Of a stretch of DNA of 64,000 bases, positions 4,504-40,901 are shown piece after piece. The position numbers were made by a program, and so were the translations under genes. The notes beneath the pieces are model-generated. The model worked only from the letters and a program-made list of their open reading frames with translations, was not told the origin of the DNA and searched no databases. Every line of letters starts with the position of its first letter. The first letter of the stretch is position 1. The DNA comes from an uncultured bacterium. GTDB taxonomy: Bacteria > Babelota > Babeliae > Babelales > RVW-14. The DNA lies in the NCBI GenBank assembly GCA_963759805.1, contig CAVXAT010000005.1, positions 1-64,000 of the forward strand, written 5' to 3'.

Positions 4504-6537
4504 CTTGAAACAATAAATACTCTGCTTTCAAATTTATCAAAATCAATCTGACTTAAAAGTTTGTGAATACTAGAAAATGTTTGTGATTTTAGAAATATCT
4601 GCCTGATCTCAATATTCTGAATTTTAGAAATCACAGGTTGCGCAGGCCCAAGTATTTGAATTTTTAAATCTTGAGAGTCGTTAAGTTGATTTAAAATGTC
4701 TGCAATGGCTGAAGAATCGCGATCAAGTTGAATATCAGAACTATTTTTGATCTCTATCTGAACTAGTCTGCCAAACGGTGGATAACAAATTTCTTTACGT
4801 AAAACGGCTTCGTCAGCGCAAAATTTAAGATAATCAATTTCATTAAGATAATTAAAAATCTTATGATCTTTCATCATCTGTATGATTACAGTGCTTGAAA
4901 ATTGCCCGCGTCCTGCCCGACCCGCCACTTGAATGAGTTGCTGAATTGAAGTTTCAGCCGCGTTATATATTGGCATATGTAGGTTCAAATCTGCCCATAA
5001 CACCCCAACAATCGTAACACGTGGAAAGTGGTAGCCCTTGGTTATAGTTTGCGTACCAATGAGAATATCAATTTTCCCATGCTCAAAATTTTCTACAGTT
5101 TGATGCCAGGTTCTTTTTTTGCTTGTGGTATCAAGATCTGCACGTGCAATAGTTGCAGTAGGAAAAAGTTCTTCAAATATTTTAACTGCTTGCTGAGTCC
5201 CCACTCCCTTTTTCAGAAAATTCTTTTGGTCAGATTTACAGTCAGGGCATACTGCCGGCAATGGCTTTTGAAAATCGCAGTAGTGACAACGTAATGTCTC
5301 CTGACCATAATGCACATGCAGCGTTAAACTCACAGAGCAGTGTGGACACTGGAAAACAAGCCCACAGTCTTTGCACTGCACAAAAAAACTGTATCCACGC
5401 CTGTTCAGATAAATAATTGCCTGCTCTTTACGACTTAAACAGTCTTTGATCGCATCTTCAAGCTCACGAGACACCCAAAAGTTACGCCGCCGCTGGTCTT
5501 TTTGTGATTTCAAAATTACTTTTTTAATCTGAGGAAAACTGCCTGCAAATCTTTTTGTTATATTGAAAAGTTTCCAACCTTTAGTTTGCACATTGTGCAA
5601 AGAGCTAAGCGATGGAGTAGCAGAGCCAAGAAGAATTGGGATTTTGTAGACACTGGCACGCCAGATTGCAATCTCTTTGCTATTCAAGCGTGGGTGTTTT
5701 TTTTCTAAAAAGCCATGCTCATGTTCTTCGTCAATAATTATCAGGCCCAAATTATTTACCGGTAACATGATCGGCATATGAACACCAATAATTAATGCCG
5801 GCTCATTTTTTAGCAACCCATTCCACATACTACGACGGTCTGCCGGCTTGCTGGCGGAATGAAAGCCAACTACCGTCATACCGGGAAGCTTTTTTCTGAA
5901 AAATACGTTCAAACTGTAAGCTTAATGATACTTCGGGAAGTAGTAACAAAACGCTTTTGTTATTTCGCAAACACTCTTCAATCAGCTTGCTATAAACTTC
6001 AGTTTTACCCGACCCGGTAACGCCATGGATTAATGTTGGCTTATAATCAGGATTTGCGATAAATGGGGTTAAGTAATCGACAATTGGTTGTTGTTCGAAG
6101 GTTAAAGTAGTTACTTGATTAGATTTAGATGCTGGATCAAGTCCAGCATGACAAAAATCAGGTGACGCGCCAGGGTAAAGAGACACATCCTGCCTGTCCG
6201 CCATAGCCTTGGCGACGGCGGACGCCTTTTTATCCGCAAAAAAGCCCCTAATCCGTTGGTAAAAATGCAAACTGGGAACAAAATAAAATTTTGAGATCTT
6301 CTCAATAAATTCTGCATATTTAACATCGTCAGGAAATTGCTGCAGCCCTAAAATGTCTCTTATCTGAAAATCAGAGTAAAAATTTGAATCAATACGAACG
6401 ACATAAGCCAAATGCTGTGAAGTCTTGAGCGGTACTTTAATAAGCGACCCAATCGCAATTTTAGAATGAAGTTGCTCAGGAATTTTATATGTTAACGGGC
6501 GTTGGAATCCATTTAAGAGAAGAACTGTTGCATACAT
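4497..6537 (-). CDS. priA: Primosomal protein N' (PriA), split by one extra A in the run at 5890-5895
   Basis: HGVTGSGKTEVY, IIDEEH, GSATPS, LNRRG, four CxxC, QVAGRAGR; QKK joins LPGMTV after removing one base. Confidence 0.95.
6127..6152 (-). repeat. Type-C GTCAT-type palindrome inside priA
   Basis: GTCATGCTGGACTTGATCCAGCATCT, translated as CHAGLDPAS. Confidence 0.75.
6193..6222 (-). repeat. Type-B palindrome (30 bp) in frame inside priA
   Basis: TCCGCCGTCGCCAAGGCTATGGCGGACAGG, translated as SAVAKAMADR. Confidence 0.8.
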
Positions 6538-24495: not shown

Positions 24496-24765
24496 TCAAG
24501 AAAACTTCAGAGGGTAAGCCTCCGGATTTTTGAGAGAATTTACATCAAGATCAACATCCAACGTTGGCCAATAAAGGTGCCTCTCATGAAGCAGTTGTAA
24601 ATCGTAAATCTGCTCAAGTGTTGCTTTGAAAAACCAGGGGTACTCGGAAAATGGAAGAAAAAACTCCTGTTTATGAACAGAAATCCAAAATCCCTCTTTA
24701 GAAATAATGTTTATCTCAACGGGTGCGACTGTGCTTTTCCCACGCTTCTGTAATTTCTTTGACAT
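24496..24765 (-). CDS. DUF2442 protein (antitoxin-like)
   Basis: FLPFSEYPWF, LYWPTLDVDL, PEAYPL. Confidence 0.85.
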   Translation of the reverse strand: MSKKLQKRGKSTVAPVEINIISKEGFWISVHKQEFFLPFSEYPWFFKATLEQIYDLQLLHERHLYWPTLDVDLDVNSLKNPEAYPLKFS

Positions 24766-24958
24766 GATCTTTTACCACCTTTTCAAGCTCTCTTAATTGA
24801 CGCTCAGACAATCCTTTATAGTCAGCAAGTGCCACAAGGGGCTCAATCCAAAATTTTGCTTCTCCATCAGGTGATGCGACATGGACATGCATCCTGTCCT
24901 CTTCACAAGAAAAAAAGTAAAATCGATATTTTTTATATCTAAAAACGGTTGGACTCAT
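24716..24958 (-). CDS. DUF4160 protein (toxin-like partner)
   Basis: MSPTVFR..FYFFS.EE.RMHVHV..GEAKFWIEP..AWEKH. Confidence 0.88.
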   Translation of the reverse strand: MSPTVFRYKKYRFYFFSCEEDRMHVHVASPDGEAKFWIEPLVALADYKGLSERQLRELEKVVKDHVKEITEAWEKHSRTR

Positions 24959-25144
24959 AGCTTGGTATCCCGATTTCAAATAGACTGACGCACCTAGAGT
25001 AGCATATAAAAAAATAAAATGATCCTCTTTGAAAAGATATCAGACATGTAAGAAATTACAAGGCTATTTAATTTAACCTTGATTCATTTAGCTTGTCAAA
25101 TCTCTGTTTTTTTGTTAAAAATCTAATATAATTCTTTATTTTGT

Positions 25145-25215
25145 TGGGAAGTCGTCTAATGGCAGGACCCTGGACTCTGACTCCAGTTATATAGGTTCGA
25201 ATCCTATCTTCCCAG
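25145..25215 (+). tRNA. tRNA-Gln(CTG)
   Basis: TGGGAAG/CTTCCCA acceptor, CTGGA-CTCTGAC-TCCAG, GGTTCGAATCC; no encoded CCA. Confidence 0.96.
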
Positions 25216-25368
25216 TTTTCGCCATTTAATGGCTTTATCTGAGCACATTATTCATACAATAATTCATTAGATAAATTCAAGTTCAAGGAAAATAATCTGT
25301 AACAAGCCCCAATAATTACATCCTCAAAAGTTTGATTTTATCAAAACACTGTACAGTGAAGCTCATTA

Positions 25369-25397: not shown

Positions 25398-25447
25398 TCT
25401 ATTTTCGAATGATTGTATATGTTTGCAAAATATTGGGACATAATTTT

Positions 25448-27442
25448 ATGAATCCAAAACTAAAATTTAATATATTTTTATATGGGTTAACTCTTTGTGT
25501 TACCTTGTGTGGATGCGAAAAAAAACAAGATACTGCAAGGGCAGGCATTCAACCTAGTGATTCAGCTACAACCGTCAGGAATAAATCTCTTGAAAAACAG
25601 CTTTTTGAGGCAATAGAAAACTATGATGATGCTAAAGTCAAAAAGCTAATTGAATTAGGTGTTAATGTTGATGCAGAGTCAGATGAAGGGATAATGATGG
25701 GTGATGGGCATTATCCAAAAAGCGCAGTTGATTTTGTCGGATGGAAAGTTTTTGAGGGGATGCTCGGTTCGTGTACGCTTTCTGCTACCGAGTGTATGAA
25801 TAGCTGCGATGAGTACGACAAAAAATACAAAAATATCTTATGGATGTTAATAGATGCTGGAGCTTCGCTTGACGGGGAAGAAAATCCAGTCAGAAACATA
25901 GTTAAATCTGGCAATTTACCATTTGTGCAACTGCTATTAAAAAAAGGGGTTGATTTAAAGAAGCATGATAAAATTTTACACAGCGCTGCGATTGGGGGAA
26001 ATACAGATGTTTTCAAAATTGTGCTTAAATTTGACAATGATGCATATTCTCATTCTGGGTGGGATAATCGTACAGTCCTTATGAATGCTGTGAGCAATGA
26101 AGAAATTGTAAAAATAGTTTTAGATATGGGGGTTGATATTAATGGAAAAGATGCAAATGGAAGAACAGCCTTCACATACGCAGTAAGAGAAGGAAATGAA
26201 GCTGTTGTAAAATTACTTATCAACAGAGGGGCAGACATTCATACCAAGGGTTCAAAAAATTTGGGTGAATTTGCAGGAGAAAATGCATTAATGCAAGCTG
26301 TTCTTGGCGGGCATAAAAATATAGTAAAGTTACTACTCGATCTGGGTTTTGACATAAATGAAAAAGATGCAAATGGAAGAACAGCTTTGGATTGGGCCGC
26401 AGGTGGAGTTGGTCGTGGGTGGAGAAATGTGGCCAATCCTGATATGGTAAGATTTTTATTGAAAAATGGAGCTGGGGGAGATTCAATGAATAAGGGGCTT
26501 ATGATAATTTCGCACATTTCTTATGGATGTACCTATTTTTCAGTAGACACAGTTCGGGCCCTTGTGCAGTTTGGCGCAGATGTTTCAGTAAAAGATAATT
26601 TTAAAGGAATGACAGCTAAAGATTGCCTAGAAAAGATGCTTGAATGTGATAGTGGGCTACTTGGACATGGAAATCTGAGAGCTAGGGAGGCTCTGAATTA
26701 TCCAAACAAGGTTGTCCACCTCGAGTATGCTCCACGGTTCAAAAAATTAACTAAGCCCATTCAATATAACTGCAGATGTTGCCATTACATGGACAAAAAT
26801 GATGCAACCGATAGTCATCATCCAATAGAAACCACGAGAAAAATATTCAGAATTGATGATAATGTATCTATTTACTATCCCCAATTTTTTGGATTTCAAA
26901 ACAAGATGGCACAGGACAGAATTAATGAAAAATTAAAAACATCATTTACAAAAACATGGCAAGTTCGGCAAAGTGTTTGTGCAGGTAAAAACACCAAACA
27001 ATACTACAGCTGCGATTTTGATGCTTGGCGAGTATGTGATCGGATAATAATAATCATGAAAAAAGAATTTACAATTGTTGATGGGGAAAAAGTCGGAGAA
27101 GATAAACAAAAAAGCTACTTTATTGATATGAGATCAGGCAAATTTTACAAACCAAAAGATCTGTTCAAAAAAGGCTTTGTTAACACAATTGCACGACTGG
27201 TTTGCAATATTAATGAGAGCAGCAAAGAATGTATGCATGACAATTTTTTTGATTATGAAAACTTTCCATTCAAAAACAACTTTATTCTTACTCACGAGGG
27301 TCTTGAGATTTACCTCGATCGGAAAAGCGCAGCACGCTATGGCAAGCGTGTTTTTAAAATAAAGTATACGGATCTTGATGGTATGTTAGATAAAGATAGC
27401 GAGTTTTATAAAGCCTTTGCGGGTACTGTTGCGAAGGTATAA
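25448..27442 (+). CDS. Ankyrin-repeat lipoprotein with additional C-terminal domain
   Basis: LCGC lipobox; several ankyrin repeats (GRTAFTYAVREGNEAVVKLLINRGAD). Confidence 0.85.
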   Translation: MNPKLKFNIFLYGLTLCVTLCGCEKKQDTARAGIQPSDSATTVRNKSLEKQLFEAIENYDDAKVKKLIELGVNVDAESDEGIMMGDGHYPKSAVDFVGWKVFEGMLGSCTLSATECMNSCDEYDKKYKNILWMLIDAGASLDGEENPVRNIVKSGNLPFVQLLLKKGVDLKKHDKILHSAAIGGNTDVFKIVLKFDNDAYSHSGWDNRTVLMNAVSNEEIVKIVLDMGVDINGKDANGRTAFTYAVREGNEAVVKLLINRGADIHTKGSKNLGEFAGENALMQAVLGGHKNIVKLLLDLGFDINEKDANGRTALDWAAGGVGRGWRNVANPDMVRFLLKNGAGGDSMNKGLMIISHISYGCTYFSVDTVRALVQFGADVSVKDNFKGMTAKDCLEKMLECDSGLLGHGNLRAREALNYPNKVVHLEYAPRFKKLTKPIQYNCRCCHYMDKNDATDSHHPIETTRKIFRIDDNVSIYYPQFFGFQNKMAQDRINEKLKTSFTKTWQVRQSVCAGKNTKQYYSCDFDAWRVCDRIIIIMKKEFTIVDGEKVGEDKQKSYFIDMRSGKFYKPKDLFKKGFVNTIARLVCNINESSKECMHDNFFDYENFPFKNNFILTHEGLEIYLDRKSAARYGKRVFKIKYTDLDGMLDKDSEFYKAFAGTVAKV

Positions 27443-27500
27443 CTAACCCACAGGGCTTTCCTGCGAGCTGAAGGTTGCCCCAAATTTTACAGACAGAACA

Positions 27501-27563
27501 GATAATTCCATTTTTAAACTTTTCCAATTGAAAATTCGAAGGGCCTCCACTGTTGGCAGTTTT
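27501..27563. repeat. Intergenic repeat copy 1
   Basis: AAACTTTTCCAATTGAAAATTCGAAGGGCCTCCACTGTTGGCAGTTTT; 43/48 identical to copy 2. Confidence 0.9.
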
Positions 27564-27740
27564 TGTAAGGTTTGGTAAGAATTGAATTTACACGGCTCTT
27601 TTCTCTCCCATTCCTGAATCCCCACCCAATTTTACCCAAAAATTAACAATTTTCCCATGATATGGCATATTACAATTTGTAGGATTTATCAATGTTTTGG
27701 TCTGTATTGGCTAATAAAAAGAGTGAAGAAAAAGCGCACC

Positions 27741-28595
27741 ATGAAAAAATATAGTCTACTTTTAATGTTATTAATCCTCAGTTCTTACGGAACACAAAGT
27801 ACAAAGGGACATGCTATGAATCGAAATAAAAAGGAAAAACCTATGGGAAAAACAATGCAAGAAAATTCGTTTAAGATTTTGTACTTGCCCATTGCCAGCC
27901 CGGAGATAAAAAATATACCCATCGATGAATGCGGTGAAGAGCTTATTGATTTAAAAGAAGTAAAACATGAACGCATTCTTCCACTTATAACTTTTGGCAA
28001 TGCCTATAACCCTGGATATCAAGAGAATGGAAAAGTACGCATTGGATTGTATAAAAGATTGTTATTGTTACTTGAGTATCTTCCTAAAAATTTTGGCATA
28101 GCTTTTTTGGAGGGATATCGTCCTTTGGGGAAGCAAAAAGAATATTTTGATAAAATATTTAGGGAGGTTGCAGGACAATGTAAAGGTGATCTTGAAAAAG
28201 CTTATGCTCAGACCAGTATATTTGTATCGCCTTACATTGACAACGTCCCAGTGCATTGCACGGGCGCCGCAATTGATTTTACGCTCTTTACCTTTAATGA
28301 TGCTGGAATAAAAAGTTTATTGAATTTAGGAACGCTTGATGCCGTTGATCAAGCGCCAACGCTAACAGATACTATTACTGAGGAGCAACGCAACAATAGA
28401 ATGCTGCTTTTGAATGCTACCTGTAAGGCAGGCCTGGTAAATTATGGTTATGAGTGGTGGCATTATAGTTATGGCGATCGCGCGTGGGCATATGTTGAAA
28501 AAAAAGAAAAAGCAATCTATGGCTTGGTCACTGAAGACAACAAAATATATATACCTACAAGCAAAGAAGAGTATTTCAAAAAATTTAAATGCTAA
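27741..28595 (+). CDS. D-Ala-D-Ala dipeptidase (M15D, VanX/DdpX-like)
   Basis: EGYRP, HCTGAAIDFTL, YEWWHYSYGD. Confidence 0.88.
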   Translation: MKKYSLLLMLLILSSYGTQSTKGHAMNRNKKEKPMGKTMQENSFKILYLPIASPEIKNIPIDECGEELIDLKEVKHERILPLITFGNAYNPGYQENGKVRIGLYKRLLLLLEYLPKNFGIAFLEGYRPLGKQKEYFDKIFREVAGQCKGDLEKAYAQTSIFVSPYIDNVPVHCTGAAIDFTLFTFNDAGIKSLLNLGTLDAVDQAPTLTDTITEEQRNNRMLLLNATCKAGLVNYGYEWWHYSYGDRAWAYVEKKEKAIYGLVTEDNKIYIPTSKEEYFKKFKC

Positions 28596-28715
28596 CAACA
28601 CTCAAATGGGACACCCACCCATAATCTAGTCGTAATCAATTACAATGTAACATTGCAAAAAGAAAGAGTATTAGCGTTCGCAGTAAAGTGCACAACCATA
28701 GCCACATCCTGCTGC

Positions 28716-28763
28716 AAACTTTTCCAGTCAAAAGTTCGAAGTGCCTCCACTGTTGGCAGTTTT
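28716..28763. repeat. Intergenic repeat copy 2
   Basis: 36 bp (28724-28759) identical to copy 3. Confidence 0.9.
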
Positions 28764-28890
28764 CGCTCAAAACCTTGACCAGAAAATCATTCGCACACAA
28801 CACAAACGACAAAAGGCTTTTTCTTGGCTTTTGTTGTTTTAAGTTTTTCTGCTAGGTTAGTACTTATACCTTATAAAGAAAGGTCGATCA

Positions 28891-30309
28891 ATGCCAGAAT
28901 TTATTTTTCCGCAACCAACGGGCCAATATGCTGTTGGTACTAAGCTTTTTGAGCTAACTGATACAACGCATAATGATCCTGAAACAAGCAAGCCTCGAGA
29001 GCTTGTGGTGCAAGTATGGTATCCTGCTGAGGGCAAGCTTGGGATGGCTAAGGCTCCTTACGCCTACGAAGCACGTGAATGGTATAAAAAAGCATTTGCT
29101 CAGCTGGGGGTAGGGGCTGAAAAATTGCGATTACTTGATGGAATTAGTACGCATGCAATTCCTGATGCACCTGCTTGCAACCAAAATGCACCCTATCCAC
29201 TAGTGATTTTTGGTCACGGCTACGGTGCTCCACGTGGCGCCTATTCATTTTTCTGTGAGGAAATAGCAAGCCATGGGTATGTTGTTACGATGGTCATGCA
29301 CACGTATATAACATTTATGACACGATTTGCCGATGGACGCAGGGTTACGTCAATACGAAGCACCAGAGATAGATCCGTGTTCGAGGAATGTTTTGCTGAC
29401 ATTGAATATATGCTCAATCAAGCAATCTCTGGAGCTTTCGGCCCTCTCACAACTCTTTGTAATTTTAATACTATCGGCATGGTTGGACATTCACTTGGTG
29501 GCAGCATGACAGCCCAAACATGCAGACGCGATAAACGTGTTAAAGCGGGTATAACGCTCGATGGAGCATTGTGGGGCATCAACGCCACAAAACCATTTCA
29601 CAAACCATTTATGTTTATGTTAACACCAAATTTTTATGAAGACATGGGTAGCTTTCTTGAAAATATAAAAGATTTATTACAAGCGGTAGGCATAACTAAA
29701 GACAATTTTATTGGATCAAATGAACGGTTTTGTCGGGAGAATGGTAAAGAAACCATACAGATTGTGGTTGAGGGCGCTAACCATAAGACCTTTCTTGATG
29801 AATCGATATTACAGGATTTATTTGCTAAAATTTTTGCGCCATCGAGCGATATGAGTAAACTTGAAGCCACCTACAACTTGCCATTACCACCAATGATCGA
29901 TGCAATCAGGGGATGTATTCTTACCTTTTTAAATCGCCATTTGAAGGGGCAGACGACAGCATATCCTTCATCGGTGCAGCATGATGCCACTCAAGAAGAT
30001 TTTGTTTTTTACATTCCTGACAAGCACCCTCAACATACCAAAATAGAAATTGATCCAACACTTTTAAATGCGTATGCCGGTAAGTATAAACTTGGCAACG
30101 TTATTATTACGATAACCAAAGGTGATAACAAGCTTTGGCTTCAAATAGCTGGTCAACCCAAGTACGCAATTTATCCAGAATCTGAGACAACCTTTTTTTA
30201 TACGGTTGCTGATAGACAAATATCTTTTGTCAAAGACGAAAAAGATAAAGTTACAAAATTAATTTTACATCAAGGCGGAGTGAATCAGGACGCTGAAAAA
30301 ATTGAGTAA
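28891..30309 (+). CDS. Alpha/beta hydrolase (PAF-acetylhydrolase-like) with DUF3471-like C-terminal domain
   Basis: PTGQYAVG, VQVWYP, GHSLGG, LDG, GANH; C-terminal LNAYAGKY..IYPESETTFF. Confidence 0.85.
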   Translation: MPEFIFPQPTGQYAVGTKLFELTDTTHNDPETSKPRELVVQVWYPAEGKLGMAKAPYAYEAREWYKKAFAQLGVGAEKLRLLDGISTHAIPDAPACNQNAPYPLVIFGHGYGAPRGAYSFFCEEIASHGYVVTMVMHTYITFMTRFADGRRVTSIRSTRDRSVFEECFADIEYMLNQAISGAFGPLTTLCNFNTIGMVGHSLGGSMTAQTCRRDKRVKAGITLDGALWGINATKPFHKPFMFMLTPNFYEDMGSFLENIKDLLQAVGITKDNFIGSNERFCRENGKETIQIVVEGANHKTFLDESILQDLFAKIFAPSSDMSKLEATYNLPLPPMIDAIRGCILTFLNRHLKGQTTAYPSSVQHDATQEDFVFYIPDKHPQHTKIEIDPTLLNAYAGKYKLGNVIITITKGDNKLWLQIAGQPKYAIYPESETTFFYTVADRQISFVKDEKDKVTKLILHQGGVNQDAEKIE

Positions 30310-30382
30310 AATAGTATCATAGACACTTGATGGAATAATGTAGTTGGTTTGTAAGAATTGCTAAACTTTGTTGCACGCCCAC

Positions 30383-30418
30383 CCAGTCAAAAGTTCGAAG
30401 TGCCTCCACTGTTGGCAG
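30383..30418. repeat. Intergenic repeat copy 3
   Basis: CCAGTCAAAAGTTCGAAGTGCCTCCACTGTTGGCAG. Confidence 0.9.
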
Positions 30419-30482
30419 CCAGATTTCGCTCTTGCTTGTCCGTCGTAACCTTGGTGAAGACGGGAAGAGCTATGTATGGCAG
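30418..30482. repeat. Degenerate nested type-B palindromes
   Basis: Outer TTCGCTCTT..AAGAGCTATGTATGGCAG enclosing inverted CTTGTCCGTCGTAACCTTGGTGAAGACGG. Confidence 0.6.
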
Positions 30483-30573
30483 AACACTTTCTTTAAATGA
30501 ATTAAACGTGAGCAAAAGCTGGCACATCAAGACTCACACATACGATCGAACATAGTTCAGATCACTAAATTTT

Positions 30574-31125
30574 TTAATATTTTATACAACTGAATTCCTT
30601 AAGCGTTTCGGTATTGATAAAGTGGAGGTTTTCTGGAATCAACAGTGTTTGTGCAAGCTCTATTGTTTCTTCATGTGTATCGTTAATATGAATTGGATAA
30701 TCGCCTATATTGAATAATTCCCGGATCATCCTTTTGCATATTACTACCTTTTTTAGAGACTTTGCTTTAAATACGACGACTTTTAATTGATAAGAGCCGC
30801 CTATTTGTTGGATGGTAAACCTCTTTTTTAGGTTGTAATGTGTCGTAAAGTTTTTGTAGGCTATTTTGAGTAAATTGAGTGGACCATTTCCCTTTAGATT
30901 AACTGTTGTTTTATACACGATTTTTCCATAATGTTGAAACAGCTGCTTAATTTTCTTATCATGTCCACGGACACATGGAAATAAAAGTGCTATATAAGTG
31001 TGTTTGCTCGAGATACAGGATTGAAAGGCTATGGCATCAAGTTTGCTTGCCTTATCAACCTCTTTGGCATGCAGGTGCATACAACACAAAAAAACAATCC
31101 CAACCAATTTGTTCTTTTCAAACAT
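30574..31125 (-). CDS. Hypothetical exported protein
   Basis: Signal peptide ending LHA; 183-aa ORF; IHINDTHEE motif. Confidence 0.6.
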   Translation of the reverse strand: MFEKNKLVGIVFLCCMHLHAKEVDKASKLDAIAFQSCISSKHTYIALLFPCVRGHDKKIKQLFQHYGKIVYKTTVNLKGNGPLNLLKIAYKNFTTHYNLKKRFTIQQIGGSYQLKVVVFKAKSLKKVVICKRMIRELFNIGDYPIHINDTHEETIELAQTLLIPENLHFINTETLKEFSCIKY

Positions 31126-31270
31126 TTTATTACTTCGTTCTTTTTATAAATACCCTTCCTGCTTCCTTGATAACAGTCTTAATGGATTGATTTATAAAAG
31201 TCAAACATTTGCATAACCATATAACTTTGCATTATAGCCTCTGATTTACATTAAATTTTTCAGATATCAT

Positions 31271-31373
31271 CGACAACTCCATTTTCATACTTTTCCAACC
31301 TGTCCGCCGAAGTTTCCTCCTATGCCCAGGTGGCTTCGGAGGATAAATTAACGAAGGCCGGATTGAAAGTTCG
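31271..31373. repeat. Intergenic repeat copy 4 (partial), interrupted by a 64-bp nested type-B insertion at 31299-31362
   Basis: ACTTTTCCAA[64 bp]TTGAAAGTTCG restores the copy-1 sequence; flank CTCCATTTTCATAC resembles TTCCATTTTTAAAC. Confidence 0.8.
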
Positions 31374-31510
31374 TAATTTATTTTTTACGCCCTTAAAGCA
31401 TGTTTTTAGATTTTATTACATAAATTCTTGATTTAATCTGCCAAGTTGTCGCATAAATGCATCATGTAATAATAAATTTAACTGTTTATCTCTATTAAAG
31501 GGTTGTAAAA

Positions 31511-34138
31511 ATGATAAAAAAATTTTTGATTGGCTTGTTGATATTCAATTTTATTTTGGCAAGCGGCAACGCGATGAATCCAGTCCTAACGCCAGAACAA
31601 ACAAGAATAAGATCATTTAAAATAGGTGGCGAAACAGTTTATCAAATCATTGCTCCAAATGAGAGCTTAATAAAGCTGCAAGGATATGAGCTGGGATTAA
31701 TGCAACAGCTGGCTTGGGTAATGATCCCGCAGATGCATCAAGCATTGCAATGGATTCAACATCCATATGGAGCCATTGAAAACCAAGATTTAATTGATTA
31801 TTTTAGGCATAATGCAGAAGAAGAAAGCTATATCTCGGCTACATGTGGTTTTGGAGCCGCATTTATAGCATACACTTTAACTAATTTATTGAATGGAAAT
31901 CCCAAAATATCTAGGGATGAGATATACAGAGCGTTTTATCCTGAAGTAGATGATCCATTTAATTGGGGGCGGTGGCCTTTTCCTGAGTTAGACCAAGAAA
32001 ATAATGTGTACAAATTTAACTCAGATAAATTTAAAGAATTTTTTAAAAATGCAATTCCAGTTGTTGTAGGATACCGAAGAGATAAGAATCAAGTAAATGT
32101 ATATGAAAAGAATTTATCTTCAGATGAAATAAGTCATATAGTTTCAACTTATCAACCAGCAATATCCGACGTAAAAGATAAAATAGTACTCATAGAAACC
32201 GATTATGATCCGAACATCGAATCCAAAAAGGACACTCTACAAAAAAAAATCAATGCTGTTATAAAGGATTCCTCTGGAAGTAAATTTGTCATTTTTATTT
32301 GTGGTAACAATTTCCAAACAGGTGCACATTGGGTAGCAATTATCATTCGAAAAAATAGTAACAATAATGTAGAAATCTTATATTCTGATACAGCAAATTG
32401 GAAGGTTGACCAGCTTAAGGAGCCTATTTTCCATGTTATTAGTTTAATAAAAAAATTACAAGGTAGCGAAACTTTTGAAGCTTGGATGGAAAAATTAAAG
32501 CGTAATATTGATGCATACATATTTAATGAAGACAGTATGAAAGGCATAGATAAAATAAACAAACTTTATGAAGACTATAAACAAGGTAATGCTGCTGCTA
32601 AAAGTTTAGAAGATTGGTTTAAAGAAAATCTTGAAAACTTAATATCAAACAACCAGCCTAGTAAAGATTTTAGAAACGCTTTGTATGAACATTTTTTAAA
32701 ACCACGGTGCAAAAACTGTGGTAATGTAACTGCTAAACCTATTCCACTCCCTTGTGGAATGGTATTTGGTGAAGATCAAAGACTCACACGAAAAAAGAAT
32801 TTCGATCATTACCTTGTTTGCCAAGATTGTCTAAATAATAAGTTGTTTGACGATAAGGGAAAGAGTGAAAGTACTATTTATTCATGGAAATGTCCTGAGT
32901 GTGGCGGATACGTTACACATAAATTTAAAAGGCTAATTGAATCCGAGGGGTACAGTGGTAACGTAATATTAGCATGCGCAATGTATTATGGACAAGATGA
33001 TAAGGAACAATCACAATTTTCAGATACTTTTTTAGAAAAATTTATATCATCCGATGCCAGGAGTGGTATATCTGTTTATAGAGCCAAAACATATCTAGAA
33101 AGAATTAAACAGGCACAAAAGGATATCAGGCCTAAATTAGCACTCTGTAATTTGGAAGAGGTTCTAAAAAAGCCACTTCTTGGCCAACGGTTAGAAGAGC
33201 TACGAGGCTTGCTAGATTTGCCTGACCTGGGGGACAAGTGGTTTGCTCAACAATTATCAGATCTACTTTTGCAAGAAGAACCAAGCCAACTTGGAGGTAA
33301 AAATGCAGAAACATTAACTCTTAGGCTTCTAGAGCTAAACGCTGATCCAAACAAGATAATTGATAGATTATGTGATTTATCTGATAAAATTGCAAAATTT
33401 GAACTTTACGAATTCATTAAAAATAATCAAGCCAAACTCTTAAAAAATCGAACTTCAAAATTAGTAGAGGTTTTAGATGGGGAAAAAATTGAAACTCTTG
33501 CTAAAGTATCTGCATCCAATAAAAAAGAAAAAATCAGAGAACTAAACGAGCAAAAACAGTCATGGCTAAACGAATTAGCCAAGAATGATTCTGCTATTCA
33601 ATCAATCTTGGGACAGATACACAACAACCATAAATTAAGAGGCAAAGTAGAAGAGTTGGGAAAAATTCCAGCAGGACTGGATGAAGATGGGAAATACACA
33701 GAAAGTCAAATTACAGAAATTATAAAATGGTCAAACCAAAGATGGGAAAATGCAACTAAAGAGCAGCTTCGTAAAATATTGGTGGACGCAATTGAATTGT
33801 TCAGATTATCAAATAATGAGAATATACAAATAAGAAATTCATTAGATATATTAATAAAAAAATTTTGTGAGCATGATAAATCTAAAGAATATTCAGATGA
33901 AGATCTTGCAACCTTAAAAGACCTAAGCATAACTGGCGAGGATTTTGAGAGAAGTCTACCAATTGACATTCCTAGGGAGCGCCAAGAATTACTTAAAACA
34001 AAATTCGAAAACGCGCAACATGCGTCTCCACTTAAAAAAAATCTTCAATTATTAGCAACTCAATTGGAAACTTTAAAGGAAAAGCTTAAAAAATTACAAG
34101 CCAAGTTAGTTTTGTTAAATAACAAGTTACACCAATAG
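31511..34138 (+). CDS. Exported protein: putative cysteine-protease domain, RING-like zinc finger, C-terminal leucine-heptad tag
   Basis: Signal peptide; TCG, HWVAII, YSDT; CKNC..LPCG..HYLVCQDC..CPEC. Confidence 0.7.
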   Translation: MIKKFLIGLLIFNFILASGNAMNPVLTPEQTRIRSFKIGGETVYQIIAPNESLIKLQGYELGLMQQLAWVMIPQMHQALQWIQHPYGAIENQDLIDYFRHNAEEESYISATCGFGAAFIAYTLTNLLNGNPKISRDEIYRAFYPEVDDPFNWGRWPFPELDQENNVYKFNSDKFKEFFKNAIPVVVGYRRDKNQVNVYEKNLSSDEISHIVSTYQPAISDVKDKIVLIETDYDPNIESKKDTLQKKINAVIKDSSGSKFVIFICGNNFQTGAHWVAIIIRKNSNNNVEILYSDTANWKVDQLKEPIFHVISLIKKLQGSETFEAWMEKLKRNIDAYIFNEDSMKGIDKINKLYEDYKQGNAAAKSLEDWFKENLENLISNNQPSKDFRNALYEHFLKPRCKNCGNVTAKPIPLPCGMVFGEDQRLTRKKNFDHYLVCQDCLNNKLFDDKGKSESTIYSWKCPECGGYVTHKFKRLIESEGYSGNVILACAMYYGQDDKEQSQFSDTFLEKFISSDARSGISVYRAKTYLERIKQAQKDIRPKLALCNLEEVLKKPLLGQRLEELRGLLDLPDLGDKWFAQQLSDLLLQEEPSQLGGKNAETLTLRLLELNADPNKIIDRLCDLSDKIAKFELYEFIKNNQAKLLKNRTSKLVEVLDGEKIETLAKVSASNKKEKIRELNEQKQSWLNELAKNDSAIQSILGQIHNNHKLRGKVEELGKIPAGLDEDGKYTESQITEIIKWSNQRWENATKEQLRKILVDAIELFRLSNNENIQIRNSLDILIKKFCEHDKSKEYSDEDLATLKDLSITGEDFERSLPIDIPRERQELLKTKFENAQHASPLKKNLQLLATQLETLKEKLKKLQAKLVLLNNKLHQ

Positions 34139-34163: not shown

Positions 34164-35385
34164 CTATATCCCCGGATCATTTGGTTGCAATGAATCCGTT
34201 AAATAATGGATGAATTCAGGTGGAAGATTTTTGCGAAGTTGTTCATCTGATACTTGAGAGGTAAACTCCTCAAATAATCCATAACTGTAGGTATTCCAAA
34301 AAAGAACCGTTTTATCCTTAAGTATGCCTTTATTTGCGTCATCAATTAATGCTGACAATGTTTTTCCAGTATAAGTTGACTCAAGTTTTTTGCCGGTTGC
34401 GCAATACAGTAATGAAATAGCATCAGCTGCCTTTGGCGTAACAGCCGCATACCCATCCCCAACGCAATCATGATTTATCTCTATATCAAGCCCGGGAATT
34501 GCTACCTGAGTTCCATTATTAAAAAGTTGCGCTGTTTCAAAATAAAAAGAGTCATCTACTTCTTTTAAATATTTACCGGTTTTATTCACAAGATCACAAA
34601 GAAACTTTGCTTTGTACTCTGGAGTAAAACTGATGCGAACCGGAATTATTTTACTTTTCAAACCCGCAGCATTTGCCCCGGCCAAAACTCCCGCAGCTGT
34701 TCCACAACTTCCAAGCGTTATATAAATAACATCAGGCTCTTTGATTCCCATCTCTTCTATTTGTTTTTTCAATTCAAAAACTGCATTAACATATCCAATT
34801 GACCCAAGTTCATTAGACCCTCCCATAGGAATAAAATAGTAACCATTTTTATCACAAATCTCCTGTGCATGTTGCTTCCATTTTTTCATTAGTATCAAAA
34901 CATGGGGGTGCATAAATAATTGCTGCACCAAAATATACCATAAGTTTAAGATTACGGATCACAACGCTTGTCTGACGTTGATCATCCAACACAAGAACGG
35001 CCTTCAAACCAACAGCTTTTGCACAAATTGCCGTTTCAAGGGCATGGTTTGATCCTGCACTACCAACAGTACACACTGTTTTATAGCCTTTTTTCAACGC
35101 ATCTGCTAAAAGAAATTCCAATTTTCTCATTTTGTTGCCGGTCAGAATTTTTGCATCACTGCTATATCCATCGTCCTTTATGTATAAGTCTTTTATTCCC
35201 AATTTTTTACTAAGCTCTTCTACCTTAACCAATGGGCTTGGATAGTTACCAAATTTAATATGAGGAATGCTTTTTGCCATTTTGGGATATTTATCAAAAA
35301 GGGGAACATTGGCATGTAGAATTGCATATGGAAACACAAAATTTGCAACAATTATAAAAGAAAAAAATCTTTTGGAAAAATTCAT
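34164..35385 (-). CDS. D-cysteine desulfhydrase / ACC deaminase family PLP enzyme, 1-nt frameshift near 34870-34910
   Basis: LYIKDD, GNKMRKLEFLL, SNHA; then IPMGGSN, GSCGT, LESTYTGK, LFWNT. Confidence 0.85.
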
Positions 35386-37574: not shown

Positions 37575-38237
37575 TTAATGTTTCTTCTCCGGATTCCATT
37601 TACTTTTTGTTCCACATTTTGGACAAGTAACTTTATTGCAGCCTCCATCTTTAAATAAAGGTCTTTTACATTTTGGGCATGGTCTTGAATTTTCATCAAT
37701 CCAAGCTTTACTTAATTTTGAGGCTTCTTCGGATTTTTTTTCTTCCTCCATTTCTGCGCGTCTTTCTGCCTTTTTACAACTAATTTTAGGATCATGCAAT
37801 CTTAAACATTGGCAGCAATAAGTCTGATGACATTCTGGACATTCTATAATCCTAACTTCCACATCTTCATTTATGAATGCATACAGACAGTTATGGGTTG
37901 GGCAAAGTTTTGAGGCAGAATGCTTTACAAGTTCTAGATATTGAAGTTTTTTCATTATGCTACTATCACTGACTAGACGACCAAGCTCTTCTTGATTTAG
38001 ATATCGAGCACATTCGGGAAGTGGACATTTTGGACTTACACGATTTTCAATGCCAGCCGTAATTATTCCAGAAATGCATTCCAGGCAACATTCATGGCCG
38101 CAGGAGAGTTTGAAAAATGGAGAAGCCCCTTCTTCCTGATAACAAACCGGACACGTAGGACGCACAGCCATAGATGCTATGGATGGTGAACCGAGTGTCA
38201 AAAATATAAAGAACAACGTTTTGGCAAACTTGAACAT
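37575..38237 (-). CDS. Exported RING-IBR-RING (RBR, Ariadne-like) E3 ubiquitin ligase candidate
   Basis: GGAGG RBS, signal peptide, RING1 CPVC..CGH..CLEC..CP..EC, IBR CP..NC..CPEC..CCQC..H..C, Rcat CPKC..KDGGCNKVTC. Confidence 0.88.
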   Translation of the reverse strand: MFKFAKTLFFIFLTLGSPSIASMAVRPTCPVCYQEEGASPFFKLSCGHECCLECISGIITAGIENRVSPKCPLPECARYLNQEELGRLVSDSSIMKKLQYLELVKHSASKLCPTHNCLYAFINEDVEVRIIECPECHQTYCCQCLRLHDPKISCKKAERRAEMEEEKKSEEASKLSKAWIDENSRPCPKCKRPLFKDGGCNKVTCPKCGTKSKWNPEKKH

Positions 38238-39980: not shown

Positions 39981-40901
39981 TCAGGCCATTTGTATCCCCA
40001 TTGATTTATTTTGTTGAACGATGATTTTGCTATTACATACAAAAGCCAATGATTCGAAAGTAAAATCAGATTGGTCTACTGCAATGATAGCTCCATAGTA
40101 AACTTCATCTGGTTTTTTATATTCGAGTGATTGGTGAAAGCGTTCTCTATTATAAAAGTTGATATAGTTTTTTATAATTAATCGCGTCTCAGCAATGTTT
40201 TCAAGAACATAAAAACACAGTGCTTCATATTTAATAGTTCGCCAGAATCGTTCAATAATGATGTTGTCTGCCCATCGACCTATTCCATCCATACTAATTT
40301 TGATACCTTCTTTTTCTAAACGAGCAACCCATCTTTCACTTGTAAACTGGCACCCTTGATCACTATTTAAAATCTCAGGCTTACCGAGTACGAGAGCCAT
40401 TTCCAATGCTTCAAGACAAACGTCTGTATCGAGATATGGTGACAATGCCCATCCCATAATCTTGCGACTAAAAACATCGATAAGACAAACCAAATAAACA
40501 AACCCACCTCTTATTTTTACGTATGTGATATCTGTTTTCCAGACTTGGTTTGGGCGGCAAACTCGTAATCCTCTTAAAAGATATTTGTACACCTTGTGTT
40601 CCTTGTTTGGAATGCTAGTTTTTTTATAAGGGGCAACTGCACAAAGACCTGTCAACGTCATTAGCCGCTGTGTTCTTTTAATGTTGTGGTTAAAGCTTTT
40701 TTCGATAAGAACTTCGTGTATTTTTCGATATCCATAAAATGGATGTCTCTCATATTCGTTGCGTATCTCATCCATAATCACCTCGTCTTGGTTGTTGGCC
40801 TTCTTTGGCTTGTAATAAAGGCTACTTCGATTTATACCGAGCAGATCGCATTTTCTGGACAAGTTCAATTTGTTGTTGTGCTCAATCCATTGCTTGCGCA
40901 C
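39981..40901 (-). CDS. IS3 transposase OrfB (DDE)
   Basis: YGYRKI, WKTDITY, NSDQGCQF, DNIIIERFWRTIKYE; -1 frame relative to orfA with a TTTTTTA slippery site near 40931-40937. Confidence 0.95.
   Translation of the reverse strand: MRKQWIEHNNKLNLSRKCDLLGINRSSLYYKPKKANNQDEVIMDEIRNEYERHPFYGYRKIHEVLIEKSFNHNIKRTQRLMTLTGLCAVAPYKKTSIPNKEHKVYKYLLRGLRVCRPNQVWKTDITYVKIRGGFVYLVCLIDVFSRKIMGWALSPYLDTDVCLEALEMALVLGKPEILNSDQGCQFTSERWVARLEKEGIKISMDGIGRWADNIIIERFWRTIKYEALCFYVLENIAETRLIIKNYINFYNRERFHQSLEYKKPDEVYYGAIIAVDQSDFTFESLAFVCNSKIIVQQNKSMGIQMA

Follow-up and report, generated by a model that had tools for sequence, protein, structure and literature searches.

Orphan recombinase tails beside a tRNA-Gln gene suggest an array of recombinase-less cassettes in a Babeliales-like bacterium

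Introduction

Tandem accretion of mobile DNA at one site is known from the SCCmec/Ccr arrays at rlmH and from the streptococcal CIMEs, where att-bounded units that carry no recombinase may move in trans. Integrons stack one-gene cassettes, each with a recombination site following it, at one place. Among phages, Streptomyces phage R4 has an attP that overlaps its integrase gene. In text searches of the literature, we came across no account of a serine integrase whose site lies inside its own gene, and no paper linking Dependentiae with serine recombinases.

The large serine integrases of phages (Listeria A118/LI, phiC31, Bxb1) combine Resolvase, Recombinase and zinc-ribbon domains and use short sites, in which the zinc-ribbon-domain (ZD) motif is shifted 5 bp outward in attP relative to attB (PMC3783163). 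Archaeal 'suicidal' tyrosine integrases (SSV1, pTN3, pT26-2) have the att site within the integrase gene, and integration alters that gene by splitting it into N and C halves that are inactive; the review describing them calls them exclusive to archaea (PMC8371274). Tycheposons of Prochlorococcus integrate at tRNA genes, where later arrivals push earlier ones outward among fragmented integrases and repeated site copies, and 27 of 937 elements carry a large serine recombinase (LSR) (10.1101/2020.12.28.424599).

We analysed a 64,000-nucleotide stretch of DNA (hereafter the window) in which a tRNA-Gln gene is followed by three genes, each trailed by a repeat that encodes an orphan LSR tail. The site resembles those of the phage enzymes in its associated domains, its shortness and its 5-bp motif shift. 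Unlike them, the half-site here appears to be the last ~30 recombinase codons, the targets appear to be tRNA 3' ends, and arrays of recombinase-less cassettes carry the site. An att site in a recombinase gene resembles the arrangement in the suicidal integrases, but the enzyme is a bacterial serine recombinase rather than a tyrosine recombinase (PF16795), its gene is not split in two, and only the extreme tail after a conserved Trp is exchanged. Integration at tRNA genes, outward displacement, fragmented integrases and repeated sites are shared with tycheposons and other tRNA-targeting islands; tycheposon repeats, however, are partial tRNAs, whereas here a +5-nt tRNA look-alike also codes for the recombinase tail. 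The stacking of one-gene cassettes with following sites is integron-like, but we found no IntI tyrosine recombinase, no attI and no attC-like fold (site fold z-scores are near 0), and the anchor is a tRNA gene. SCCmec elements and CIMEs differ in that they target the 3' end of a protein gene, use other recombinases and have repeats that are not recombinase tails.

Results and Discussion

Repeat copies in the window. A sequence-only reading had described four minus-strand repeat copies as orphan, interchangeable protein C-termini, and every detail of this observation that we checked was confirmed. The copies lie at 27443..27568 (R1), 28640..28768 (R2), 30317..30427 (R3) and 31232..31376 (R4). 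A 25-mer of the repeat (≤3 mismatches) matches 27535-27559, 28735-28759 and 30394-30418, with 0.00 matches expected from shuffles, and the pattern is beyond chance. R1-R3 are full members of a 48-nt family (27516-27563, 28716-28763 and 30375-30422). R4 (E 0.0029) is split into CTTTTCCAA and TTGAAAGTTCG by a 64-nt GC-rich insert (31299-31362), a second copy of which was not found in the genome at E≤1e-3. It retains the core up to GTTCG, has no arm and lacks the right-hand part (GTGCCTCC...GGCAG) that is present in R1-R3, and it is a broken, probably older copy; its tail is ~65% identical in protein to that of R1. Contig C1 of the same genome carries two further full copies and one half copy.

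The minus-strand peptides are as originally quoted: KLPTVEALRIFNWKSLKMELSVLSVKFG for R1, RKLPTVEALRTFDWKSLQQDVAMVV for R2, SEIWLPTVEALRTFDWVGVQQSLAIL for R3 and WKSMKMELSMISEKFN for R4. Beyond the Trp, these frames remain open for 26, 27, 21 and 20 codons to stops at 27443-27445, 28640-28642, 30317-30319 and 31232-31234, respectively. The five differences between R1 and R2 fall at codon positions 3, 2, 3, 1 and 3, in agreement with the earlier count of three third-position changes. Each copy also lies within 1-45 nt downstream of a plus-strand ORF, contains a T-loop-like GTTCGAA and often has CCA at its end.

The repeats match C-termini of large serine recombinases. The sequence-only reading had suggested a likeness between WLPxVxxLRT and the extreme C-terminus of LSRs, and had proposed a search for full-length resolvase-recombinase-zinc-ribbon proteins that end in the motif with variable tails. 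Three such proteins exist, in genomes G014 and G008 and at locus L078, and they end in WLPxxxxLRTFNWK plus a variable tail. The G014 (L022:7798-9342) and G008 (L023:6711-8255) recombinases, both of 514 aa with PF00239, PF07508 and PF13408 domains, terminate in DWLPTIAPLRTFNWKNVLRMATFFNDRAVLFDL and KKWLHGLSTLRRLNWKSIQQNMVLLMRPATPCTS, respectively. The L078 recombinase, 59% identical to that of G014 over 498 residues, terminates in WRHTRDALRTFNWKKLTNILKIILI. Thus, the site lies within or adjoins an LSR gene in relatives, and not in the window. LRTFNW tails occur on two LSR clades that are only ~35% identical to each other.

Most other occurrences are short. Outside the window genome, 13 of 15 peptide-profile matches (E≤1e-3) lie in frames of 23-84 aa and two in frames of 517 and 528 aa. 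A profile search of a library of 1.84 billion representatives gave 13 matches at E≤1e-3, comprising 12 proteins of 34-142 aa, one weak match in a 1307-aa protein and no full-length LSR representative. A word-based protein search using the C-terminal 55 residues of the G014 recombinase returned two candidates, none of which scored.

The orphan tails keep a coding-type conservation pattern. We searched 35 family genomes for the 18-nt core DNA, which gave 17 matches in nine genomes versus one for a reversed control. In this set of matches, picked by core alone and regardless of tail, tail codons +1 to +11 carry 0.35, 0.84 and 0.44 bits at codon positions 1, 2 and 3, whereas the eight codons upstream of the core are without such bias (0.58, 0.54 and 0.63 bits). 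Excess at the second codon position is typical of conserved hydrophobic residues.

Tails part from bodies at a Trp codon. The same reading had placed the att site inside the recombinase gene, so that each integration would swap the tail. The swap itself can be seen directly: a metagenomic fragment (P0002) and a recombinase of the window genome (C1:63212-64678) match as far as SDQPEWLH, beyond which their sequences are unrelated, and the P0002 tail resembles an orphan (C1a) located 12 kb from that recombinase. The position of the break needs correction, as it falls at the upstream Trp (WLP...) and not at the Trp of LRTFNW. Close LSR relatives diverge exactly after WLH, and in all family members the body gives way to the tail at the Trp. 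We also considered whether the C1:63212 recombinase ends in a decayed LRTFNW tail and rejected this, since only 12-14 nt are in common.

Sites are linked to tRNA genes with a constant spacing. We examined 19 LSR loci of the family, and in 14 of them a convergent tRNA gene (Asn, Arg, Glu, Asp, Gln or Ala) overlaps the 3' end of the recombinase gene. The conserved body ends at the Trp codon, which is the complement of the tRNA CCA end, and the remaining frame is antisense tRNA, giving tails such as WLPEQDSNLRPND or WCA from the conserved Trp to the stop. An LSR of Parachlamydiales has the same arrangement on tRNA-Leu; ARAGORN called no tRNA under the G008 tail. Duplication of flanks is likewise evident in Babeliales-like and environmental Chlamydiae genomes, where the sequence after an orphan site is the downstream flank of the tRNA itself, either within one locus (L140, L121, L115) or across genomes (L139/L145, L091/L075). 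On contig C12 of G014, the last 20-30 nt of tRNA-Asn (≤3 mismatches) do not recur elsewhere to mark the element ends.

In the site, 19 or 22 nt separate TTCGAA from the junction, versus 14 or 17 nt for the T-loop of the cognate tRNA, a difference of +5 nt in all nine comparisons. As sequence geometry, this constant spacing matches the published arrangement of serine integrase sites, in which the attP motif lies 5 bp farther out from the crossover than its attB counterpart (PMC3783163).

Each site ends in 5-9 nt that look like the neighbouring tRNA's 3' end, and together with GTTCGAA these are all that the repeats have in common with the 3' part of their target. Local alignment of R1-R3 to all 42 tRNAs was not significant (scores of 21-22 versus a shuffle 95% level of 22-24), and conservation past the junction in the window copies extends for ~9 nt only. 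We also asked whether the site derives from part of tRNA-Gln, tRNA-Glu or tmRNA and found nothing significant; tmRNA shares an 8-mer only.

A predicted cassette array at tRNA-Gln. The proposed anchor, or attB-type half, of the array is a plus-strand tRNA-Gln(CTG) gene at 25144..25216 (Rfam tRNA, 62.3 bits). The first cassette gene (25409..27442, plus strand) codes for a 677-aa ankyrin-repeat protein and is followed by R1, which comprises the orphan tail, a TTCGAA core and a 19-nt arm ending GGCAG/TTTTTG. The order of tRNA-Gln, ankyrin gene and site recurs on contig C14 of G014. The second gene (27657..28595, plus strand) codes for an M15 D-Ala-D-Ala dipeptidase-like (VanX-like) protein and precedes R2, whose arm ends GGCAG/TTTTCGCTC. 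The third (28891..30309, plus strand) codes for a PAF-acetylhydrolase-like alpha/beta hydrolase with DUF3471 and precedes R3, whose arm ends GGCAG/CCA and is followed by a GC-rich hairpin. A minus-strand ORF of 183 aa without a Pfam family (30574..31125) lies between R3 and R4.

The window tRNA-Gln ends CCCAG/TTTTCGCC and lacks an encoded CCA, whereas its orthologues in G002, G003 and G014 end CCCAGCCA and have one. R3 has CAG/CCA, and we propose that the array ends here on the right and that this is the displaced CCA; beyond this CCA its right flank shows no likeness to the tRNA-Gln flanks of relatives. The region abutting the tRNA gene varies between close relatives, in that G002 and G003 have 3.2 kb of other genes in place of an island of 12.3 kb (25.28-37.58 kb). 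Because the window flank at 25236-25282 is still homologous to that of G002, the evidence for a left junction at the tRNA consists of ~10 shared nt (CAGTTTTCGC) plus the missing CCA.

We consider it likely that R1-R3 are element-side (attP-type) half-sites with the crossover region of tRNA-3'-end-integrating LSRs of Babeliales-like bacteria and environmental Chlamydiae, and that the window holds tRNA-Gln plus three recombinase-less cassettes. In such a system, the LSR gene body would end at the Trp codon, with TGG as the complement of the tRNA CCA/acceptor end, and the last ~30 codons (LPxxxxLRTFNWK plus variable tail) would be read from the element's own half-site. Integration would fuse the body to the tRNA gene, and the recombinase gene would therefore come to end in antisense-tRNA codons. 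The native tail would stay at the far end of the element, fused to the old tRNA flank. Since half of the attachment site would lie inside these last codons, each insertion beside the tRNA gene would leave an orphan tail between inserted genes, and tandem arrivals would pass tails from element to element. The window would then read as tRNA-Gln(CTG) followed by ankyrin, VanX-like and PAF-AH-like single-gene cassettes, each closed by a half-site, with the displaced CCA carried by R3. This amends the sequence-only reading in two respects: the system is tied to tRNA genes, and the window copies are junctions of cassettes that lack a recombinase.

The cassettes might move in trans. The genome of the window (88.7% complete) has no LSR with an LRTFNW tail among its 12 LSR-like pieces, which are truncated or carry other tails, so the cognate recombinase was not found in the same genome. 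Pfam matches between 17 and 41 kb include no integrase apart from an IS3 transposase. In Chlamydiae, no LSR was found within 6 kb of the sites, and no PF07508 domain was found in two of the genomes that have them (G062 and G063). Arrays there are built of recurring one-gene units of 1.2-2.3 kb, as in L145 with three sites ~2 kb apart, and include toxin-antitoxin cassettes. The scan for related loci used a DNA pattern whose 122+ hits are mostly chance (~280 expected by our own, uncontrolled estimate), and we confined ourselves to the coherent subsets from Chlamydiae and Babeliales-like genomes.

A bolder proposal, which we advance tentatively and do not favor, is an integron-like serine-recombinase system common to Dependentiae and Chlamydiae, two unrelated amoeba-associated phyla. 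Each recombinase-less one-gene cassette would bring a copy of the tRNA's downstream flank together with an attP-type half-site, itself a +5-nt tRNA look-alike and spare recombinase tail, such that insertion would rebuild a usable target at the tRNA and stacking would be unlimited.

The strongest competitor to the cassette array, though itself rather unlikely, is that three complete LSR elements integrated successively and later lost their recombinase genes by deletion, leaving R1-R3 as scars, so that cassettes were never mobile as such. Decayed LSR genes are indeed common in the window genome, one orphan (G004, L008; P0003) retains 59 LSR codons upstream of the core, and tycheposons have been described as integrating in tandem and then decaying (10.1101/2020.12.28.424599). 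Against this, in all of R1-R3 the LSR similarity ends at the Trp position, and three independent deletions ending at one nucleotide are improbable. The R2 and R3 arms are moreover identical over 36 nt with unrelated DNA beyond, and the one-gene units of the Chlamydiae arrays recur.

If the cassette array is correct, it offers a sequence-level account of how variable islands adjoining tRNA genes arise in Dependentiae and environmental Chlamydiae. It also provides natural attP/attB pairs with a tRNA as the direct reference for the 5-bp shift rule of serine integrases, making the recognition model testable on new enzymes. Serine integrases that target tRNA genes could in addition serve as tools.

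Position of the crossover. The crossover probably lies at the Trp/CCA position, with TTCGAA as the probable ZD motif. Exchange inside the TTCGAA core (within LRTF), as implied by the sequence-only reading, is a less attractive and on balance unlikely option, even though several observations would fit it. TTCGAA forms the middle of the conserved 48-nt block, similarity is lost within a few nt of it in three half copies (R4, C1b and G003:C33), and the breaks of R4 and C1b right after TTCGAA point to a breakpoint other than the one we prefer. In addition, a 151-nt metagenome contig (depth 2, one run) links R2 (28731-28769) and the tRNA-Gln flank (25245-25275) across 61 letters, and its R2 match begins at GTTCGAA after unlike letters.

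However, LSR bodies and tails separate at the Trp throughout the family, and duplications of site plus flank start at the tRNA 3' end. A replacement arm exchanged at the T-loop would be 5 nt too long to yield a tRNA. For serine recombinases, a palindromic central dinucleotide such as the CG of TTCGAA gives no polarity, a general argument against a crossover there. The joint in the 151-nt contig weakly supports the array; the two public read runs hold 0.05-0.07 of the words.

Other readings of the repeats. A structured RNA, a functional pseudo-tRNA or a set of terminators for the upstream plus-strand genes is very improbable. The proximity of the copies to plus-strand ORFs, the T-loop-like motif and the frequent CCA would suit such a role, but no Rfam family matches at E≤1 except the true tRNA, ARAGORN calls no tRNA at the repeats, folding z-scores range from -0.95 to +0.89 on the two strands, and tail conservation follows codon position.

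Least probable of all is that the short frames are small-protein genes in their own right. In favour of this, R1 lies within a listed 60-aa GTG ORF, and gene callers predict 34-142-aa proteins at such sites in public data. Against it, the upstream parts lack mutual similarity and a conserved start, R2 and R3 are absent from the list of start-codon ORFs (≥40 aa), and the same peptide ends 514-aa recombinases. The cassette array would instead explain these predictions as a class of spurious small 'genes' in public gene calls.

The repeat copies and their orphan tails

The 48-nt repeat occurs in the window as three full copies (R1, 27516-27563; R2, 28716-28763; R3, 30375-30422), each with a tail that reads on the minus strand. 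A fourth copy, R4 (about 31262-31376), also reads on the minus strand; a 64-nt GC-rich insert interrupts it, and it is without the right-hand arm. The sequence-only reading took these frames for orphan C-termini, tentatively those of large serine recombinases (LSRs) whose attachment site lies inside their own gene. The four minus-strand peptides it quoted, with stops at 27443, 28640, 30317 and 31232, were recovered, as were the third codon positions of three of the five R1/R2 differences. The same genome (1.5 Mb, 37% GC, 21 contigs, with the window on contig C5) carries two further full copies and one half copy on contig C1, all in short frames.

A profile built from five such peptides and run over 61 related genomes matches 28 of them at E<=1. 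At E<=1e-3 it gives 15 hits outside the own genome, 13 in frames of 23-84 aa and two at the extreme ends of open frames of 517 and 528 aa. Both long frames encode proteins of 514 aa that carry the Resolvase, Recombinase and recombinase zinc-ribbon domains. A third full-length LSR with the motif (L078, 59% identical) was found by scanning the genome collection, so that the full-length proteins ending in this motif that the earlier proposal called for exist in three examples.

The proposal also implied that further copies would show a codon-position bias. Sites picked by an 18-nt core alone among 35 family genomes number 17, in nine genomes, against one hit for the reversed core used as a control. 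LR..W is read in 15 of the 17, and the tails stay open for 13-27 codons. Conservation in these tails is concentrated at second codon positions (0.84 bits versus 0.35 and 0.44), and such second-position conservation is absent from the upstream arm of the same sites. The tails have thus been selected as protein.

Recombinases and tRNA genes

The own genome has at least 12 LSR-like pieces, and close LSR homologues are present in nine of the 35 family genomes. Seven or more LSR genes, whole or fragmentary, lie at C1:52700-64700, C3:19000-21300, C10:49800-50750 and C9:11100-12650; truncation, interruption or internal deletion affects several of them, and two overlap tRNA-Asn and tRNA-Arg(CCT). No recombinase matching the LRTFNW-type sites was found in this genome.

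At 14 of 19 LSR loci examined, a tRNA gene is convergent with the recombinase gene and the 3' ends overlap. The conserved recombinase body at these loci ends in Trp, whose TGG is the complement of the tRNA-encoded CCA, and the frame then continues through the antisense tRNA (for tRNA-Asn, WLPEQDSNLRPND*). At the remaining five, the tails are of the LRTFNW type or of other kinds. The same 3' overlap recurs in a Parachlamydiales LSR on tRNA-Leu. LRTFNW tails are borne by two LSR clades with a mutual identity of only about 35%.

A metagenomic recombinase fragment, P0002, agrees with the own-genome recombinase at C1:63212-64678 through ..SDQPEWLH and is unrelated thereafter, its tail resembling the orphan at repeat site C1a, 12 kb away in the own genome. 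This is a tail swap between close relatives. The swapping foreseen from the sequence is thus seen, but the break is at the upstream Trp.

The array beside tRNA-Gln

The gene for tRNA-Gln(CTG) (25144-25216) stands immediately left of the array. A plus-strand ORF precedes each full repeat copy, coding for an ankyrin protein (25409-27442), a VanX-like M15 peptidase (27657-28595) and a PAF-AH-like hydrolase (28891-30309). The tRNA 3' end reads CCCAG|TTTTCGCC, whereas its orthologues in three related genomes (G002, G003 and G014) end CCCAGCCA. R1 and R2 terminate GGCAG|TTTT.., and R3 terminates GGCAG|CCA, with a GC-rich hairpin after it. These ends fit an order of tRNA, ankyrin gene, R1, VanX-like gene, R2, hydrolase gene and R3 with the displaced CCA.

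Two same-genus genomes, G002 and G003, have 3.2 kb of other genes in place of 25.28-37.58 kb, and the order tRNA-Gln, ankyrin gene, site is conserved in G014. Few bases support the left junction of the array, since homology to G002 persists through the flank at 25236-25282. In one 151-nt peat metagenome contig (depth 2), 28731-28769 and the tRNA-Gln flank 25245-25275 stand 61 letters apart, which would be compatible with a circle or with the joining of site and flank; this is a single weak observation.

The cassettes might be mobile as such or might be scars of larger elements. That they were built as units is favored by the recombinase similarity of R1-R3, which ends at one common nucleotide, and by the R2 and R3 arms, which are identical amid unrelated DNA.

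Several other genes lie in or near the island. A DUF4160/DUF2442 gene pair (24496-24958, minus strand), likely a toxin-antitoxin-like module, sits between rplS and tRNA-Gln. A PALP (PLP-dependent enzyme) gene within the island is broken into overlapping ORFs, one of 249 aa and one of 177 aa (34164-35385, minus strand), and is probably a frameshifted pseudogene. An 875-aa ORF (31511-34138, plus strand) with faint matches only (RickCE-like catalytic domain, E 0.005) and a 220-aa protein with IBR (RING-between-RING type) domains (37575-38237, minus strand) look like eukaryote-like effector candidates. An IS3 transposase ORF is at 39981-40775.

Related sites in Chlamydiae and Babeliales-like genomes

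A wider scan of the 18-nt core against one genome per species gave mostly chance hits. It also recovered 18 loci, together holding 21 sites, in which ..LQLLGTLRTFDWLSLSQEFSTLSKLIA* is nearly invariant. Among their records, eleven are labelled as Chlamydiae lineages; several Babeliales-like loci turned up as well. In seven of the 18, tRNA-Asn lies 1-5 kb from the site, in an arrangement matching that of the window's tRNA-Gln; at two Babeliales-like loci the equivalent position is taken by tRNA-Gln(TTG). Directly past the site comes the flank that belongs downstream of the tRNA. At L140, L121 and L115 this flank (45-70 nt) occurs twice, once behind the tRNA and once behind the site, and the site flanks of L139 and L091 equal the tRNA flanks of L145 and L075, respectively. 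The site closes with 5-9 nt similar to the neighboring tRNA's 3' end.

In the Chlamydiae arrays, what stands between tRNA-Asn and the site is often a toxin-antitoxin pair oriented as the orphan tail; its members are a Gp49/HigB-like protein and an antidote of the HI1420 type (PF21716, E 1e-14 to 1e-17). Such units are at L140 5274-5576, L109 5275-5577, L145 1374-1902, L121 4145-4775 and L137 1604-1906.

Tandem accretion is clear in the larger islands. One in G014 (contig C12) runs from tRNA-Asn through a first LSR, about 10 kb, an LRTFNW tail closing a second LSR and about 19 kb to two orphans. Another, in G008 (contig C7), has three consecutive LSRs and terminates at tRNA-Asn, and contig C1 of the own genome combines tRNA-Asn with three sites and several pieces of LSR. 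The element that bears an LRTFNW-type serine recombinase in G014 also encodes a tyrosine recombinase (Phage_integrase, E 9e-17; L055 14742-15695, G014:C12:34742-35695).

Site geometry

TTCGAA, which forms the T-loop of the tRNA, stands 5 nt farther from the junction in the site than it does in the tRNA; this holds for nine of nine comparisons, the window included. Rutherford et al. (PMC3783163) place the zinc-ribbon-domain motif of serine integrases 5 bp nearer the center in attB than in attP. Given this matching shift, the tRNA 3' end would be an attB-type half, the repeat an attP-type half, and the repeat joined to old flank an attR. Crossover would take place near the CCA/Trp position. R4 and the half copy on C1 (C1b) break at TTCGAA and not at Trp, which counts against the Trp reading. 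R1-R3 have no significant similarity to any tRNA.

Comparison with known systems

SCCmec and CIMEs are among the close known kinds. Phage serine integrases are alike in enzyme and site geometry, and integrons in the look of the cassettes. Tycheposons and other tRNA islands are alike in tandem accretion and site repeats, and archaeal suicidal tyrosine integrases in having the att site inside the gene. One review (PMC8371274) gives suicidal tyrosine integrases as exclusive to archaea. The present system differs in that a serine recombinase has the putative site within its own 3' end; our literature searches brought up no paper on such an integrase, and none on serine recombinases in Dependentiae.

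Inserts at the sites

GC-rich hairpin-type inserts lie inside att-type sites in R4 (31299-31362) and at two G014 sites (L033, contig C14, about 5850-5925 and 1980-2040), in the same position after AAAGTTC. The R4 insert is matched over 30 nt, at 93%, by two further G014 contigs, and the own genome has no second copy at E<=1e-3. An IS3-family element stands between C1a and C1b (L001 8683-9914, own contig C1:76682-77913). It is a recent insertion, because the corresponding G003 contig joins both flanks without it.
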